A DNA stretch of 64,000 nucleotides from Candidatus Poribacteria bacterium (GTDB taxonomy: Bacteria; Poribacteria; WGA-4E; WGA-3G), in assembly GCA_022828145.1 (NCBI GenBank), contig JAJEJA010000015.1:9298-73297 (forward strand), written 5' to 3'. Every line of letters starts with the position of its first letter. Position 1 is the stretch's first letter. The notes under the pieces were generated by a model. It saw only the letters and a program-made list of their open reading frames with translations, was not told the DNA's origin and ran no database searches. Of this stretch, positions 1 through 6,803 are shown piece after piece. Both the position numbers and the translations under genes were made by a program.

Positions 1-1688
1 AGCTCCTCAAGACTCCGCTTTTCACTGTATGAACTGTCATAGAGCGGTGCGACTTCCGGGTATTCTGCAGTTACGAGTTTGTATATGGCAGAGATTACCT
101 CGTCTTTCTGGATGAGTCGAATTGCTTGACCGAGTGGAATATTATCTTTGCTGTTTACGATGATGCGTGGCTTAAAACTCTCATTAAGGTAACTGAGCCA
201 AACCAAATGTCGCGTTGGTAACGAAATCTCCGATTCGCCTGCAAAGAGTGTAAACTGAGTCCTTTCGAGCGCGTTAGAAGGAAGCGTCTGTGCAACCCGC
301 CAAAGAGTATACTGCACTTGTCCAATCTTTTCTGACACGGGTGCTGAACCTACAAAATCATTGCACTTAATCAGTAAATACCGTCCGGCAATTAGGTTCA
401 ATTCACCAAGTGTCAGCATTTGAAGGTATTTTTCAGTGGAAACCAATTTGTCCTCTTCGTCGAGATACGAAAGGCAAACGATGATCGATCCCTCTGCAAA
501 TTTAATCGGACAACCGAAAGCGACAGCCAGGCAATCAAAGCATATAGAGGGTTGAGCTTGTCCAGTGCCAGACTGCAATCTTTGTGAAGGATCTGAGAAA
601 ACAAACCTGTTTGCCTCCAATTTACCCTCAAAACCCCGGGTTTCGATTTTGGGAGGCAAATGTCTGCCGCAGCTGTAGCACCGATTTTTAGCTGTATCTC
701 CAGCAGTATGTACGGAATCTTGTTCGATCTCGTCAATTGAAGCAAGTGGGCACTTTAGGGGTCGAATATGTTCGCTTAGAATGCCAATAATCTTATCTTC
801 AATTTTTCCTTTTTGGGAGCGAAGTTTTACTGTGCCGTAAGAAAATTGGGTTGAGCCAGTTCGGTTAAACCGGAGAGAAAGCCTCAAAGCCTCATCAAAA
901 AGCCTTACTAATTTATCAGAACCTTGAGCATTTGTCTGCATTTCATTACGCAATTCGGTTAAAAGTCGCTTTAGTTCTTTTCTGTTTTCTATTGCAGCAG
1001 CCTTCCGATCTTCGTCCGTTTTGGCTTTTCTATAGTTGTCAGGGTACCGAACAACTCTTTCTTCAAGCGTAGCAATATAAAACGCAGCTTGCCAAAGTTT
1101 CATATCCTCTGTCACCGATGGAAAGTGAACATAGCCAAAACCTCTGTTAGTTAGTTTCATGCTATTCATGAACAGCGTAAAAGATTTATATAATTCCTCT
1201 TCCGAGTAAGCAAATTGAATGAATCGCTGCCATGCCTCTTCAAGTTGAAAATCTGTGTCCGGAATAAACAAAATGAACATCAGACGGTTTTCAGAAAGAC
1301 GAATAGCAAATTTATTTTTTTGTAGGTATTCTACGAACCGCTCAATTAGCGTGTCATAAGCAAGCCGAATCTGCATCTCTTGTGGTAGCACGGTGCGGTG
1401 ATAATTAAAAATTTTACCAATTGGATTTCCCCCAAACTGGATAACCTCGTTTTCATCTACAACAAGCTCTTTAATTGGATCTGTAGATTGTTTCTTATCA
1501 TAATGCTCCGCATCCCGGATTACCCGCAGGGCGTCCATATCGTTCCACCACCATTTAAGTTGATCATACTTGTTCTCGCGGTCCATCCGATGAACGAATG
1601 CCTTAAAATCCAATGTAGACTCACTTAGGTGTGTTGCCGCAAAGTGAGCAGCTAAAATTTTATCTCTTTGTTGATCATCTATAATCAT
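1..1688 (-). CDS. Large protein, 3'-partial (>562 aa), with CxxC..CxxC zinc finger; putative type I CRISPR large subunit (Cas10d/Cas8-like)
   Basis: Not in the ORF track because it runs off the window. Manual translation from ATG 1688 (GAGG SD 7 nt upstream) shows no stop for 562 codons: MIIDDQQRDKILAAHF...RCYSCGR(669-680)...NRFVFSDPSQRLQSG..PSICFDC(531-542)...YLQMLTLGELNLIAGRYLL. The ORF is secure; the Cas call rests on the Zn-finger layout and the WYL neighbour. Confidence 0.6.
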   Translation of the reverse strand, partial: MIIDDQQRDKILAAHFAATHLSESTLDFKAFVHRMDRENKYDQLKWWWNDMDALRVIRDAEHYDKKQSTDPIKELVVDENEVIQFGGNPIGKIFNYHRTVLPQEMQIRLAYDTLIERFVEYLQKNKFAIRLSENRLMFILFIPDTDFQLEEAWQRFIQFAYSEEELYKSFTLFMNSMKLTNRGFGYVHFPSVTEDMKLWQAAFYIATLEERVVRYPDNYRKAKTDEDRKAAAIENRKELKRLLTELRNEMQTNAQGSDKLVRLFDEALRLSLRFNRTGSTQFSYGTVKLRSQKGKIEDKIIGILSEHIRPLKCPLASIDEIEQDSVHTAGDTAKNRCYSCGRHLPPKIETRGFEGKLEANRFVFSDPSQRLQSGTGQAQPSICFDCLAVAFGCPIKFAEGSIIVCLSYLDEEDKLVSTEKYLQMLTLGELNLIAGRYLLIKCNDFVGSAPVSEKIGQVQYTLWRVAQTLPSNALERTQFTLFAGESEISLPTRHLVWLSYLNESFKPRIIVNSKDNIPLGQAIRLIQKDEVISAIYKLVTAEYPEVAPLYDSSYSEKRSLEE

Positions 1689-1813
1689 CTTAAAACCTCA
1701 CTTCCAATTCGCATTATTTTTTAAGTATACCACACCACCAGTCACACAAACCTGTGTCTGTTCAAAAAAATCGCGCTTAATTTTTGTACAATTGCCTTTT
1801 TTTCCCAAAAAAC

Positions 1814-1842
1814 TTGACACCACGTGCAAAAAAGTATATACT
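1814..1842 (+). promoter_or_regulatory. sigma70-type promoter pointing into the tandem structured-RNA units
   Basis: TTGACA (1814-1819), 17-nt spacer, TATACT (1837-1842). Predicted start is ~1848-1850, just before unit 1 at 1852. Confidence 0.75.
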
Positions 1843-1851
1843 ATAACAGAC

Positions 1852-2061
1852 ACCAGAAGTAAAATAGCAGCCGAAAACTGTTGCGTATGCCATGCTGCTT
1901 GCTGACCGTTCAGCAAGATAGGTTGCCCACCTTTTTTCATGGTGGTTTTCTGTCGAAGACCAGAAGTAAAAGCGTAGCCGAAAACTGTTGCGTATGCCGT
2001 GCTGTCTCCCAGACGGCTGGGAGAATAGGTTACCCACCTCTACACCGAGGTGGTTTTCTGT
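1852..2061 (+). ncRNA. Tandem pair of ~107-nt structured RNA units of unknown family
   Basis: Units start at 1852 and 1959. Linkers are conserved (accagaagtaaaa; agccgaaaactgttgcgtatgcc; ataggtt; ggtggttttctgt). Stems change sequence but keep pairing: cttgctga/tcagcaag vs tctcccag/ctgggaga, and gcagcc/ggttgc vs gtagcc/ggttac. Confidence 0.65.
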
Positions 2062-2101
2062 TTTAAACTTTTTCATCCATCCTTCCATTATCTTCCACCC
2101 T

Positions 2102-3073
2102 TCAATCTTCCGTATACAATGCCACCATCTCGCGTGCTGTTCGAGCAACCCATTCTCGTAATGCCTTCGGTTTAACGACTTCAGCTTCATGTCCCCAACG
2201 CAACACCCACCATCCGATTTCGTGCCAGCCAGCGACGGTTGCCTCAAAACGAAGCGTGCCATTATCCAATTCCTGCAGCTGCTGCGTCGGATGCCAATTC
2301 ACCTCCCGAATCAGCGGAGCGATACGTGGGGCAAACAGGATGACAACATGTGTGTCCGGTCCGAGCATAACATCCCAACTTTTATCAAGATATTTCTGCA
2401 CAGAGAAATCTTCAGGGATAGTATAACCCGCATGTGTCATATTAAGTGAATCAATACGGTTGATACGAAAGGTGAGAATCTGTTCGAACGTTTCAGATCG
2501 TCCAATGACATACCACGCCCGTTTGCGAAACAACACAGCATAAGGTGCAAGCCGATGGCGAACCTTCGTGCCACTGCTAAAAGAATTATACTCTATAGTG
2601 ACCCGTGTCTTTTCTCGGATTGCTTGGTATAGCATCTCTTTACACTGATCATCTTCATCAGTCGGACTAACTTGTTGTGGTGGTACTTCAATCTGTGAGA
2701 CAATTTGGTTTAAGGTATCGTTTGTCTGTTTCGGTAAACCGGAAGTAATCTTATGAATTGCACTATTCAGCATCTCAATTGATTGTTTACCCTCCGTTGC
2801 CCGATAAAAACTCGCTGCGGTAACCAGTGCAAGTGCTTCTTTAAGATCAAGGTTGAGTGGGGGCAGGAAAAACTCGGATATCATCTCGTATCCTTGTTTA
2901 CCACGTGGCACAATCATGATTTCCATATCGCGCAAAAGGTCAATATCACGCTGGATGGTCGTTTTGTTGACTTCAAAACGTTCTGCTAACCGAGGACGGG
3001 TCCATTTACAAGGTTGACTATGGATAAGACGCGCAACTTCAATGATGCGCGCCATCTGTTTTTTGCGGTACAT
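2102..3073 (-). CDS. HTH-WYL-WCX transcriptional regulator (PafB/PafC/YafY family)
   Basis: N-terminal wHTH (LAERFEVNKTTIQRDIDLL), WYL core (APYAVLFRKRAWYVIG...TFRINRI) and C-terminal WCX (WVLRWGHEAEVVKP). ATG 3073 is preferred over TTG 3085. Confidence 0.9.
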   Translation of the reverse strand: MYRKKQMARIIEVARLIHSQPCKWTRPRLAERFEVNKTTIQRDIDLLRDMEIMIVPRGKQGYEMISEFFLPPLNLDLKEALALVTAASFYRATEGKQSIEMLNSAIHKITSGLPKQTNDTLNQIVSQIEVPPQQVSPTDEDDQCKEMLYQAIREKTRVTIEYNSFSSGTKVRHRLAPYAVLFRKRAWYVIGRSETFEQILTFRINRIDSLNMTHAGYTIPEDFSVQKYLDKSWDVMLGPDTHVVILFAPRIAPLIREVNWHPTQQLQELDNGTLRFEATVAGWHEIGWWVLRWGHEAEVVKPKALREWVARTAREMVALYTED

Positions 3074-3145
3074 AATGTCTCTCAAATATAGTCATATTAA
3101 AATAGTATACACCATTTCATAAAGATGCATAAGTCCTGATTAACT

Positions 3146-4243
3146 TTATTGCATCCGCCTAATCCGTGCAGGTGTATCATCACCCCGAATCTCAGATGAA
3201 AGGATACGCAAACTCCTATCCTCAATCGGTAATGCCACCTTCACACCACCACGGCGATGCGACTCACGCAGGGCAATAGCGACCTCTAACGCTGCCCGAC
3301 CATCTTCACCGGAACATTTCGGCGAACCGCCATTCTCAATGGCACTGATGATGTCGTCAAGAATGTCCAACCCCATCCCTTGCATCCGGACCGGATACGG
3401 AAACGGACATGTTGCGGGTATACCCCGTCCTCTCCGACCCCCGGGGAGTATGCGTATCAACTCGAACTTTTCAGCATTATTGATAGAACGAATCCGTCCA
3501 CTTGTACCGATGACATCTACCTCCCACGGTGCTGCGCCACAGGCAGTGCTTCGGAAATATGCTCGGACACCGTTATCAAACACGAGATAGCCGTTTCCCA
3601 TCAGGTCGTTTTCACCTGCTGCTGCGTCGTCAGATTGCATTTCACCGAAGACCCATGCCACATTGCCACCCGCCATATACCGTAGAATATCAATCGCGTG
3701 GCTGCCGTTATGGGATAGACCGCACTGTGCATAAACGGTTACCTGCAGCACATTACCAATTTCACCTTCATCAATGAGTTTTCTCGCCTCGCTAAAGAAG
3801 GGGTTCCAACGTCTTGCACAGTTTATTGCCATCACAACACTGTTCTCTTGACAGGCATCTACCATCGTATCCGCTTCTTCAAGACTGAGCGAAATCGGTT
3901 TTTCTGCCCAGATACCTTTTACACCTGCGCGTGCCACATCCTGCACGATTGTAGAACGCACACGTGCTGTTGTGCATATACTGACAAGATCAAGGTTTTC
4001 CTTTTCTAACATCTCACGATAATCGCTATAGATATGATCCGAACTAAGTCCCCAGCGTTCACCGAAGATTTCAGCCTGTTCAGCGTGTAAATCAGCACCT
4101 GCAACCAATTCGGTTTTCGGTGATGTCACATAACTCGGAGCATGACAGTAAGGTAGAAAGAGGGAACCCCCTTGTGTGATTTCATCGTCAAAAGTACTCC
4201 CCATGCGTCCTAAACCTATTACACCTGCACGATATGTTGACAT
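3146..4243 (-). CDS. Gfo/Idh/MocA family oxidoreductase
   Basis: GVIGLGRMG Rossmann motif, AEKP motif, NGSHAID. Confidence 0.9.
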   Translation of the reverse strand: MSTYRAGVIGLGRMGSTFDDEITQGGSLFLPYCHAPSYVTSPKTELVAGADLHAEQAEIFGERWGLSSDHIYSDYREMLEKENLDLVSICTTARVRSTIVQDVARAGVKGIWAEKPISLSLEEADTMVDACQENSVVMAINCARRWNPFFSEARKLIDEGEIGNVLQVTVYAQCGLSHNGSHAIDILRYMAGGNVAWVFGEMQSDDAAAGENDLMGNGYLVFDNGVRAYFRSTACGAAPWEVDVIGTSGRIRSINNAEKFELIRILPGGRRGRGIPATCPFPYPVRMQGMGLDILDDIISAIENGGSPKCSGEDGRAALEVAIALRESHRRGGVKVALPIEDRSLRILSSEIRGDDTPARIRRMQ

Positions 4244-5199: not shown

Positions 5200-5670
5200 T
5201 TACGAAACAGAATCAACATCTAACATAGCGCGTGGTCCATCAATATCATTTTGATCCAACATTCTACGGTATCTGCTCTCTTTTCTGATTGGTTCAGTTC
5301 TGTTTGTAGATAGCCAGTGATAACTACTACGATCCTTTAATACTTCAAGGTCTTCTGCTGAAGACTTAAGCCATTGTCTTAACCATTTAACTTTTTTGAT
5401 GATGTTTTCTACTTCACTTGTTTTGCCTTGATGAACTTCAACATAATAAATTTTGTCTTTATAACCGAAAACATAGTCCCAACGAGGTGCATTCGGATAA
5501 CGGTTTTTGAGACAGGTATCTATATCAACACTTCCTTTCAAATCACGTGTCGTGTGAGCTTTTATCTTACTGCTATTTTTGCCTAATGCTTGTAATCCAT
5601 CTTTCAAGCAGTCGCTGATTTCGGTTATACTTTGAACTGCGATGCGAAAACTCACAAATCTGCCCTCCAC
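5200..5670 (-). CDS. Hypothetical protein, possible PD-(D/E)xK-type nuclease partner of the upstream ATPase
   Basis: 156-aa basic ORF with RWDYVFG...YYVEVH, a D...ExH pattern. Overlaps the ATPase gene by 19 nt. Confidence 0.55.
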   Translation of the reverse strand: MEGRFVSFRIAVQSITEISDCLKDGLQALGKNSSKIKAHTTRDLKGSVDIDTCLKNRYPNAPRWDYVFGYKDKIYYVEVHQGKTSEVENIIKKVKWLRQWLKSSAEDLEVLKDRSSYHWLSTNRTEPIRKESRYRRMLDQNDIDGPRAMLDVDSVS

Positions 5671-6803
5671 ATAGCTTCAGAAACGACTTCAGAAACTTTA
5701 GAACTGAATGCTGTTAACCCACCAAAATCTGATACTGCTTCATCAGGATCTTCAGCATCTAACGTTGAAATATCTTTGACATGGACAATCTTGTCTTGCT
5801 GAGCAAAATAATAGGTTTTGAACGTTTTTTCTAACGCCGTTTCTGCTAAAGGTCTTGAAAAGTAATTTGGTTTCAAATCCAACACTTTCAATAGCTGTGT
5901 TGGTTCAGCACCTGCTTTAACCAGATATTGAATTGCCCACACTAATTCCAAAACTTGCGAAGAATGCGTTGACACGATGACTTTATACCCGCGTCTCATA
6001 AGTTCCAAAAAAACAGTGAGTAGTGCTGAAATTGCTTTGGAGTGTAACCCTATTTCAGGTTCCTCAATAACAACCCAATTGATGCTATTTTTTTTCTGTT
6101 CCCCACCCGAGGGCATTAATCGGTATAATCCCATCAACAGTGGCACAAATTCCCGCTGACCAGTTGACCACACCATAAATGGCAATTGGGTACCCGCAAC
6201 GTCTAAGACAATCCGTTTCCGCAAACCGGAACGATCCAATTTTACTTTAGCCCCTTTAAAAATGCTTTCTCCAATTGCATCACGTATCATTTTGTTCATA
6301 CGCCCGGTGTGCGGAAATATATCACCTTTACTAAACTCTAAACTCGTTTCTAATAATAGACGCAGATGTTCACTAAATTGCTTAACAACATAGGGGTCAC
6401 CGATAGCGTAGTCAGTAAAAGGACGGGGCCACCCGTCTTTGAGTGTCATTGCTCGGTGTGCAGGAATCAGGAGGAAGTTTTCCGCTTTTTTCCTGTCTTT
6501 TTTAGACAAAGCTTTGTCAAGTTCAAAATCCTCGTCGTCAACGACAATTTTAGTAGTATTGTCCCAAATACCGTCCATCCCTTCACCGAAATAGAGTGAT
6601 AAAAAATCATTTTTATTCTCATGCCAATCAAAACCGTGTTTTCTAAGGGTCTTCGTAATATCACCGATGTCTAAAACTAACTTTACAAGTTGGAGCAGAA
6701 TGCTCTTTCCACTCGCTTGTTCACCGACAAATACTGTTAGATCCCCGAATGTAATGTCAGCTTCTTGAATTTGTCCTAATGAAGTAACTGTAAGACGTTT
6801 CAT
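5652..6803 (-). CDS. ABC-type/AAA_15/AAA_21 ATPase (defence-associated class)
   Basis: Walker A GEQASGKS, signature-like STGQRE, Walker B IEEPEIGLH, H-loop VSTHS. No transmembrane partner. Confidence 0.85.
   Translation of the reverse strand: MKRLTVTSLGQIQEADITFGDLTVFVGEQASGKSILLQLVKLVLDIGDITKTLRKHGFDWHENKNDFLSLYFGEGMDGIWDNTTKIVVDDEDFELDKALSKKDRKKAENFLLIPAHRAMTLKDGWPRPFTDYAIGDPYVVKQFSEHLRLLLETSLEFSKGDIFPHTGRMNKMIRDAIGESIFKGAKVKLDRSGLRKRIVLDVAGTQLPFMVWSTGQREFVPLLMGLYRLMPSGGEQKKNSINWVVIEEPEIGLHSKAISALLTVFLELMRRGYKVIVSTHSSQVLELVWAIQYLVKAGAEPTQLLKVLDLKPNYFSRPLAETALEKTFKTYYFAQQDKIVHVKDISTLDAEDPDEAVSDFGGLTAFSSKVSEVVSEAMWRADL

Follow-up and report, generated by a model that had tools for sequence, protein, structure and literature searches.

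A Poribacteria type I CRISPR-Cas locus whose large subunit matches a Cas8b profile and is predicted to fold most like Cas10d

A large-subunit gene at the window edge heads a complete type I operon

The stretch of DNA analysed here, hereafter the window, comprises 64,000 nucleotides of a Candidatus Poribacteria bacterium (NCBI GenBank assembly GCA_022828145.1, contig JAJEJA010000015.1, positions 9,298 to 73,297 of the forward strand); the host genome of the locus described below is one of sponge-associated Poribacteria. At its left edge, on the minus strand, positions 1-1688 very probably hold the 5′ three quarters of a large-subunit gene that belongs to a complete type I CRISPR-Cas system (clusters of regularly interspaced short palindromic repeats, and CRISPR-associated proteins). 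By sequence profile the effector cassette that this gene opens is type I-B-like, and it lies in the same surroundings as the phylum's canonical type I-D loci. An annotation made earlier without database searches, hereafter the sequence-only reading, had proposed that a gene resembling an HD-less type I CRISPR large subunit starts here and is the first of a derived Cascade-like operon continuing leftwards. The identity of the gene is upheld by a PADLOC Cas8b profile, by the predicted fold and by the operon context; the operon does continue leftwards, and it is its derived character that failed to appear.

The minus-strand frame runs without a stop from ATG 1688 to the window edge, a distance of 562 codons, as had been noticed, and it is absent from the open reading frame (ORF) track because open-ended frames are listed there only on request. 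At the local GC of 0.42 and a per-codon stop probability of 0.062, a run of 562 stop-free codons has p = 2.6e-16. A further 9.3 kb of contig beyond the left edge was fetched, and with it the whole gene was found to encode 737 amino acids (L001 8772-10985) and to extend 525 bases past the left window edge, with start codon, ribosome-binding site and stop all present in an intact frame. A word-index search returned 188 homologues; those listed were mostly full length and, where named, annotated as 'hypothetical protein' of Candidatus Poribacteria, and an exhaustive search of a representative library gave 114 clusters similar to the large subunit at E <= 1e-3. We looked up 10 of these clusters; five carried a name, in each case 'hypothetical protein', and for two an organism was given, an Acidobacteriota and a Myxococcales/Deltaproteobacteria metagenome-assembled genome. 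Within the phylum, the large subunit is present in 23 of the 151 genomes sampled. One may postulate that the frame is a decayed remnant, that is, a pseudogene, which would agree with the 'hypothetical' label of public homologue records and with the absence of any Pfam or NCBIfam match; an intact frame of 737 codons, the breadth of the homologue family, a confident structural model, intact operon partners and identical repeats, however, leave this reading scarcely credible.

The genes that follow to the left of the window lie on one strand in the order cas8, cas7, cas5, HD gene, cas3′, cas6, cas4-cas1, cas2 and array (Table 1). The neighbours by which the proposed operon was to be recognized, namely cas7, cas5, cas3, cas6, cas1/2 and an array, are thus all found, genes for both repeat-associated mysterious proteins and a helicase among them. 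The parts of a complete type I system are likewise all there: a Cas3 helicase, an HD nuclease gene, Cas7, Cas5 and Cas6, an adaptation module and an array. As the array reaches the end of the contig, it contains at least 19 repeats; in the orientation of the cas genes, the repeat terminates with ATTGAAAC, which we take to be the usual 8-nt handle generated by Cas6. The order WYL-cas8-cas7-cas5-HD-cas3′-cas6 is conserved in 7/7 related Poribacteria loci, with cas2 also in all seven and cas4-cas1 in six. In the remaining relative (L005), cas4-cas1 was not matched between cas6 and cas2, and a deletion or a divergent gene is possible there.

The sequence-only reading had also raised the possibility of an operon without an array and without cas1/2, which would have lent the adjacent RNA more significance. 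In its full form this alternative holds that the locus is a derived, array-less Cascade with a non-immune role, either transposon guidance or pure regulation, with the adjacent RNA as its guide. A structured RNA with its own promoter does adjoin the gene, and in two relatives crRNA-like mini-arrays (crRNA, CRISPR RNA) appear to aim Cascade at the promoter of a neighbouring gene. Set against these observations, however, are the cas3′, HD nuclease, cas6, cas4-cas1 and cas2 genes and at least 19 identical repeats, a tandem RNA that is unlike the repeat, and the fact that no transposase gene was noted in the 12.5 kb inspected. As the adaptation and interference modules are complete and accompanied by an array, the locus is neither array-less nor derived, and no exotic array-less role is needed; we consider such a role very improbable.

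Sequence motifs and predicted fold of the large subunit

The large subunit is matched by the PADLOC Cas8b profile PDLC01527 ('Cas8b, CAS-I-B effector_LS', 759 positions) with E 4.2e-118 and 393.7 bits. The match falls into two stretches, the best of which pairs residues 311-734 with profile positions 364-753. Against NCBIfam there was no match at E <= 0.01, including the Cas10d/Csc3 model TIGR03174. The CYSC and CFDC knuckles noticed in the sequence-only reading are confirmed, with a gap of exactly 42 residues in which NRFVFSDPSQRLQS lies; across 45 aligned homologues C337 never varies, C340, C383 and C386 are nearly invariant, and all four cysteines are kept in 44 sequences. We regard this motif as a putative zinc finger, the four conserved cysteines being the likely zinc ligands. 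No HD dipeptide and no GGD motif occurs anywhere in the 737 residues, and before residue 331 the invariant and nearly invariant columns of the same alignment include no conserved histidine or aspartate. The absence of an N-terminal HD motif, reported earlier, therefore extends to an absence of the HD dipeptide from the entire protein.

An AlphaFold2 model of the large subunit, built on the 45-sequence alignment, reached a predicted local distance difference test score (pLDDT) of 89.3 and a predicted template modelling score (pTM) of 0.86, with lower confidence in the zinc-finger loop region (residues 337-386); its C-terminus is helical. In this model the protein is laid out on a Cas10-like plan without catalytic motifs, with predicted N-terminal helices, a palm-like domain, the zinc finger, a second palm-like domain and a Cas11-like tail. 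Compared with the PDB by Foldseek, the model showed a similarity to Cas10d, as the sequence-only reading had implied: type I-D Cas10d came first (7sba_I, E 2e-4; 6thh_C, E 9.5e-4; both with prob 1.00), followed by Cas8 of a type I-B CRISPR-associated transposon (CAST; 8fcj_I, E 8e-3), a further Cas10d (6yes_B, E 2.6e-2) and type I-B Cas8b (8h67_L, E 0.13). When VIA-align was applied to the Foldseek candidates, Cas10d was again best, with moderate scores. The proposed resemblance to Cas8/Cas10d thus stands as a profile match to Cas8b and a predicted fold nearest to Cas10d, but it does not extend to Cas10d/Csc3 when judged by the NCBIfam model or by profile-profile comparison.

A stand-alone HD gene and a split Cas3

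A gene of its own, placed between cas5 and cas3′, provides the HD domain that the large subunit lacks. The HD and helicase ORFs are separate and overlap slightly, the HD part coming first as it does in a fused Cas3. In 28 aligned homologues of the HD protein, H34, H71-D72, H101, H119-H120 and D159 are invariant; a word-index search found 207 homologues, one of which is named Cas3 in one source. The structural model of this protein is of moderate confidence (pLDDT 73), and Foldseek gave no match for it at E <= 0.001; its HD fold was shown by a wide VIA-align comparison and its HD motifs by the homologue alignment. From its context, we consider the protein a putative stand-alone Cas3′′ nuclease.

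A type I-B-like cassette in type I-D surroundings

We compared the locus with a canonical type I-D locus of the phylum, L029, the only one annotated in full; elsewhere, type I-D was assigned from spacing and partial hits. L029 encodes Cas3′ (TIGR03158, 1e-74), Cas10d (TIGR03174, 4.3e-117), Csc2 (TIGR03157, 1.1e-80) and Csc1 (TIGR03159, 3.4e-56), and after these a Cas6 with 64% identity to that of the window locus. The tandem RNA is present there too, the WYL protein is a distant paralogue (24% identical), and the repeat equals that of the window locus at 31/37 positions, with compensatory changes in the stem. We also inspected 20 loci carrying the RNA in genomes without this cas8: a WYL homologue stands beside the RNA in 18 of them, a Cas6 that is 60-83% identical lies within 8 kb in 12, and a distant Cas3-like helicase is found in six. 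In this phylum, two alternative effector cassettes are therefore found within one and the same setting of regulator, RNA, Cas6, adaptation genes and repeat class. In the window locus itself, the best PADLOC matches of Cas3′ and Cas6 are type I-D models (Cas3d, 1.7e-66; Cas6d, 5e-39), and Cas1 also passes the type I-D model TIGR04093 with 392.8 bits against a cutoff of 385.

These shared surroundings raise the question of whether the large subunit is a true Cas10d orthologue whose HD domain was lost to a separate gene, in which case the locus would be a variant of type I-D rather than type I-B. Cas10d is the best match in both Foldseek and VIA-align; the Cas3d, Cas6d and TIGR04093 matches and the 31/37 repeat positions agree with such a view, and loci of both kinds are flanked by this tandem RNA and by regulators of the WYL family. 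The sole region that hhalign aligns is the CxxC...CxxC finger, with both CxxC pairs placed onto those of Poribacteria Cas10d. The comparison as a whole was not significant, however: the 45-sequence profile of the large subunit gave Prob 0.13 and E 0.45 with a profile of 19 Cas10d sequences, and Prob 0.22 with a single Poribacteria Cas10d. None of the window-locus proteins matched TIGR03174, TIGR03157 (Csc2) or TIGR03159 (Csc1) at E <= 0.01, whereas Poribacteria type I-D proteins give 4e-117, 1e-80 and 3e-56 with these models; BLASTP of Cas7 against Poribacteria Csc2 and of Cas5 against Poribacteria Csc1 was likewise not significant. Profiles labelled I-B, by contrast, fit the cassette at E 1e-79 to 1e-118. 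We therefore judge orthology to Cas10d improbable and retain the assignment of the large subunit to the Cas8b-labelled family.

A candidate internal start for Cas11

In type I-B, Cas11 is reported to be translated internally from the large-subunit gene (PMC11096372), and the same has been described for type I-D (bioRxiv 10.1101/2020.04.18.045682). The sequence-only reading had pointed to such a start as something to look for. Just left of the window, codon 581 of the large-subunit gene is an ATG that follows AAAGGAGAT-AAACTG (AAGGAG-N8-ATG), and the same Shine-Dalgarno sequence and ATG were seen at 5/8 Poribacteria loci, with a methionine at or beside this position in all eight; across the family, however, only 13/45 members have methionine in the exact column. 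Several separately called proteins of about 160 amino acids in the representative library (P0163, P0170 and P0223) start exactly there, and the C-terminal 157 residues of the large subunit match Cas11 of type I-A in a VIA-align structural alignment. A small subunit of about 157 amino acids is thus probably translated from codon 581, although the exact start is kept in a minority of the family.

Promoter, operator candidate and regulator

The ribosome-binding site upstream of ATG 1688 has counterparts in six aligned relatives, four with GGAGG or GGGGG right before the ATG and two in which GAGGAG or GGAGG stands some bases farther upstream. The extended -10 element that the sequence-only reading had assigned to the gene is present and conserved, but lies one base from the place given for it, at 1732-1724 instead of 1733-1725. 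A sigma-70 consensus scanner did not list this minus-strand cas promoter because it requires a -35 hexamer as well. The conserved block that overlaps the -10 contains a CACA...TGTG symmetry and is a candidate operator, to which the WYL regulator may bind. The sequence-only reading had noted that WYL regulators often flank type I-D loci, and one does lie upstream of the cas operon here, with a homologue upstream of cas8 in 7/7 related loci. This regulator probably controls the extended -10 promoter of the cas operon.

Table 1 Features of the locus in the window and to its left (plain coordinates, window; L001, locus coordinates)
Feature	Position	Strand	Basis and details
Large-subunit gene (cas8), first 562 codons	1..1688	minus	ORF 3..1688, ATG 1688; 3′ end open at window edge
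N-terminal four-helix region, residues 1-66, no HD motif	1491..1688	minus	Secondary structure of model
First palm-like (ferredoxin/cyclase-like) domain, beta-alpha-beta plus long helical insertion, residues ~75-321	726..1466	minus	Model
Putative split zinc finger, CYSC (337-340) ... CFDC (383-386)	531..680	minus	Four Cys kept in 44/45 homologues
Second ferredoxin-like (palm-like) domain, residues 400-492, without GGDD motif	213..491	minus	Model
Ribosome-binding site GGAAGTGAGG	1696..1705	minus	7 nt before ATG 1688, read from sequence
Extended -10 TGGTATACT of cas operon	1724..1732	minus	TATAnT in 7/7, TGn in 6/7 aligned upstream regions of related loci
Conserved block CAGGTTTGTGTGACTGGTGGTGTG, overlapping the -10 and extending just upstream	1731..1754	minus	5/7 aligned upstream regions
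Promoter-like site TTGACA-17-TATACT of tandem RNA	1814..1842	plus	Promoter scan
Two tandem copies of a ~109-nt structured RNA	1850..1958, 1959..2066	plus	Opposite strand to cas8 and WYL gene
HTH-WYL-WCX regulator (HTH, helix-turn-helix)	2102..3085	minus	Pfam WCX 3.3e-19, WYL 6.8e-15, HTH_11 4.7e-7
cas7	L001	same as cas8	326 aa; PADLOC Cas7b PDLC01388, 8.2e-111
cas5	L001	same as cas8	267 aa; PADLOC Cas5b PDLC01389, 3.5e-79
HD gene (putative cas3′′)	L001 6243-7109	same as cas8	264/288 aa, between cas5 and cas3′; no Pfam/NCBIfam/PADLOC match
cas3′ helicase	L001 4402-6282	same as cas8	626 aa; TIGR01587 cas3_core 4.4e-51, 174.1 bits (cutoff 102.45)
cas6	L001	same as cas8	TIGR01877, 2.9e-20, above cutoff
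cas4-cas1 fusion	L001	same as cas8	552 aa; NF049935 5.7e-187, 622.5 bits (cutoff 560)
cas2	L001	same as cas8	TIGR01573, 4.7e-19
CRISPR array	contig start		After cas2; 18 full identical 37-nt repeats + 1 partial, period ~73

A conserved tandem RNA and mini-arrays of relatives

Between the cas operon and the WYL gene lies the tandem RNA, each unit of which ends in a terminator-like hairpin. Its consensus structure, derived from seven sequences, has 29 pairs, 12 of them with compensatory changes, and Rfam gave no match at E <= 1 on window 1-3300. Of the 151 genomes sampled in the phylum, 46 contain the RNA, usually in 2-4 tandem copies, and in 11/11 genomes that have both, a copy lies within ~2.1 kb of cas8. 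Metatranscriptome contigs from a sponge that cover an RNA unit (85-103 nt) had depths of 168 and 772; the neighbouring WYL gene had at most ~11, and the RNA unit had ~7-8 in the DNA data of that sample. As contig depth measures expression poorly and is blind to strand, these figures no more than hint that related RNA copies are highly expressed. The best local alignment of the RNA with the CRISPR repeat was weak and shows no similarity. The RNA may serve the WYL regulator as a ligand or partner, or it may be a small RNA of the cas locus.

A search of window 1-4000 for degenerate copies of the CRISPR repeat, allowing up to 11 substitutions, found none; such copies are present in the relatives L002 and L003. 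There, a segment that is absent from the window lies between WYL and cas8 (L002 8790-9626, L003 8790-9679) and contains a promoter and a degenerate mini-array in addition to a gene with a DUF3800 domain (Pfam, 2e-8 and 7.8e-13, respectively); the Cas8 of L002 is 99% identical to that of the window. Each mini-array consists of a pseudo-repeat, a ~31-nt pseudo-spacer and a second pseudo-repeat. The L002 pseudo-spacer fits a site just after the DUF3800 promoter at 18/20 first positions, with mismatches at 6 and 18 and a GTT flank, and that of L003 fits the corresponding site at 14/15 first positions, with a mismatch at 6 and a GTG flank. Spacers and targets differ between the two relatives, yet each spacer fits its own target. 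The mini-arrays resemble published crRNA-like regulators such as CreA and CreR, and the DUF3800 gene looks like a gene repressed by Cascade in the same manner. The flanks of the two loci hint that the protospacer adjacent motif (PAM) may be 5′-GTN. The PAM of type I-D is GTH.

Further into the window there is another pair of minus-strand ORFs (5652-6803 and 5200-5670), the first encoding 383 amino acids with a P-loop-like GEQASGKS motif and the second 156 amino acids; they may be an ATPase pair of a defence type.

Discussion

By analogy with solved type I complexes, the system would work as follows. Cas6 would cut the repeat to give crRNAs that carry the ATTGAAAC handle, on which the large subunit, several Cas7, Cas5, Cas6 and copies of Cas11 would assemble as Cascade. 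The large subunit, possibly together with Cas5, would read the PAM and open the R-loop, after which the separate Cas3′ helicase and Cas3′′ HD nuclease would be recruited and degrade the target DNA.

Several observations weigh against the assignment of the locus. Pfam and NCBIfam provide no family for the large subunit, for Cas7 or for the HD protein. Sequence searches of the PDB with single proteins of the locus found no CRISPR chain, and profile searches of the PDB (A1, the large subunit, and A3) returned only low-complexity or coiled-coil matches, the best being a fragment of RNA polymerase beta′ (7e-4). Type I-B typically has a single fused Cas3 with HD and helicase parts; here Cas3 is split into two genes. 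Contigs from the RNA run and from the DNA of the same sample leave window 1-1712 uncovered and so carry no information on expression of the gene. Finally, that Cas11 is translated from M581, that zinc is bound, that the PAM is recognized and that interference takes place are all inferences.

The predicted fold of the large subunit is nearest to Cas10d while its profile says Cas8b, which is of evolutionary interest. It is possible, if rather doubtful, that the Cas8b-labelled family is a surviving intermediate between Cas10d and Cas8, in which an HD-less large subunit has retained the Cas10 layout, with a cassette that is interchangeable with that of type I-D in a shared Poribacteria frame; the locus would then represent a distinct I-B/I-D hybrid subtype with type I-D-type crRNAs and probably a GTN PAM. 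Two effector cassettes in one frame of regulation, processing and adaptation offer a clean natural case of effector module exchange. Because homologues are recorded as 'hypothetical' and the large subunit, Cas7 and HD protein have no Pfam or NCBIfam models, standard pipelines under-call this type of CRISPR system in sponge symbionts. The neighbourhood is worth a study of its own, given a conserved tandem RNA without an Rfam match and relatives whose mini-arrays are aimed at a DUF3800 gene.

Comparison with known systems

In its mode of action the system would resemble Cascade-Cas3 of type I-B or type I-D. The kind of system is a known one, since its cas8, cas7 and cas5 belong to families already modelled as type I-B variants (PADLOC-DB); we found no paper on CRISPR subtypes in Poribacteria within an incomplete coverage of the literature. 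In contrast to type III Cas10, the large subunit has no GGDD/GGD or HD motif, and its context is type I with a Cas3 helicase. Type I-A, in which Cas8a is likewise accompanied by a split Cas3′/Cas3′′ (7TR6, 7TR8, 7R2K), differs in that Cas11 of the window locus is not a separate csa5-like gene and in that no type I-A profile is a best match; the two genes also stand here in the order HD then helicase. In type I-A the order is cas3′ and then cas3′′.

From textbook type I-B, the window locus differs by its split Cas3 and by a Cas6, a Cas1 and a repeat that are I-D-like. Its large subunit has no detectable sequence similarity to the solved chains of Cas8b (8H67) and CAST Cas8 (8FCJ) and is nearer to Cas10d in predicted structure; it also has a conserved four-cysteine motif of the zinc-finger kind, whereas the main text of the type I-B report never uses the word 'zinc' (PMC11096372). 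Compared with Cas10d/Csc3 (7SBA, 6THH, 6YES), it lacks the HD domain and motif, is ~250-300 residues shorter, does not match TIGR03174 and has partners other than Csc2 and Csc1, yet the fold predicted for it is similar.

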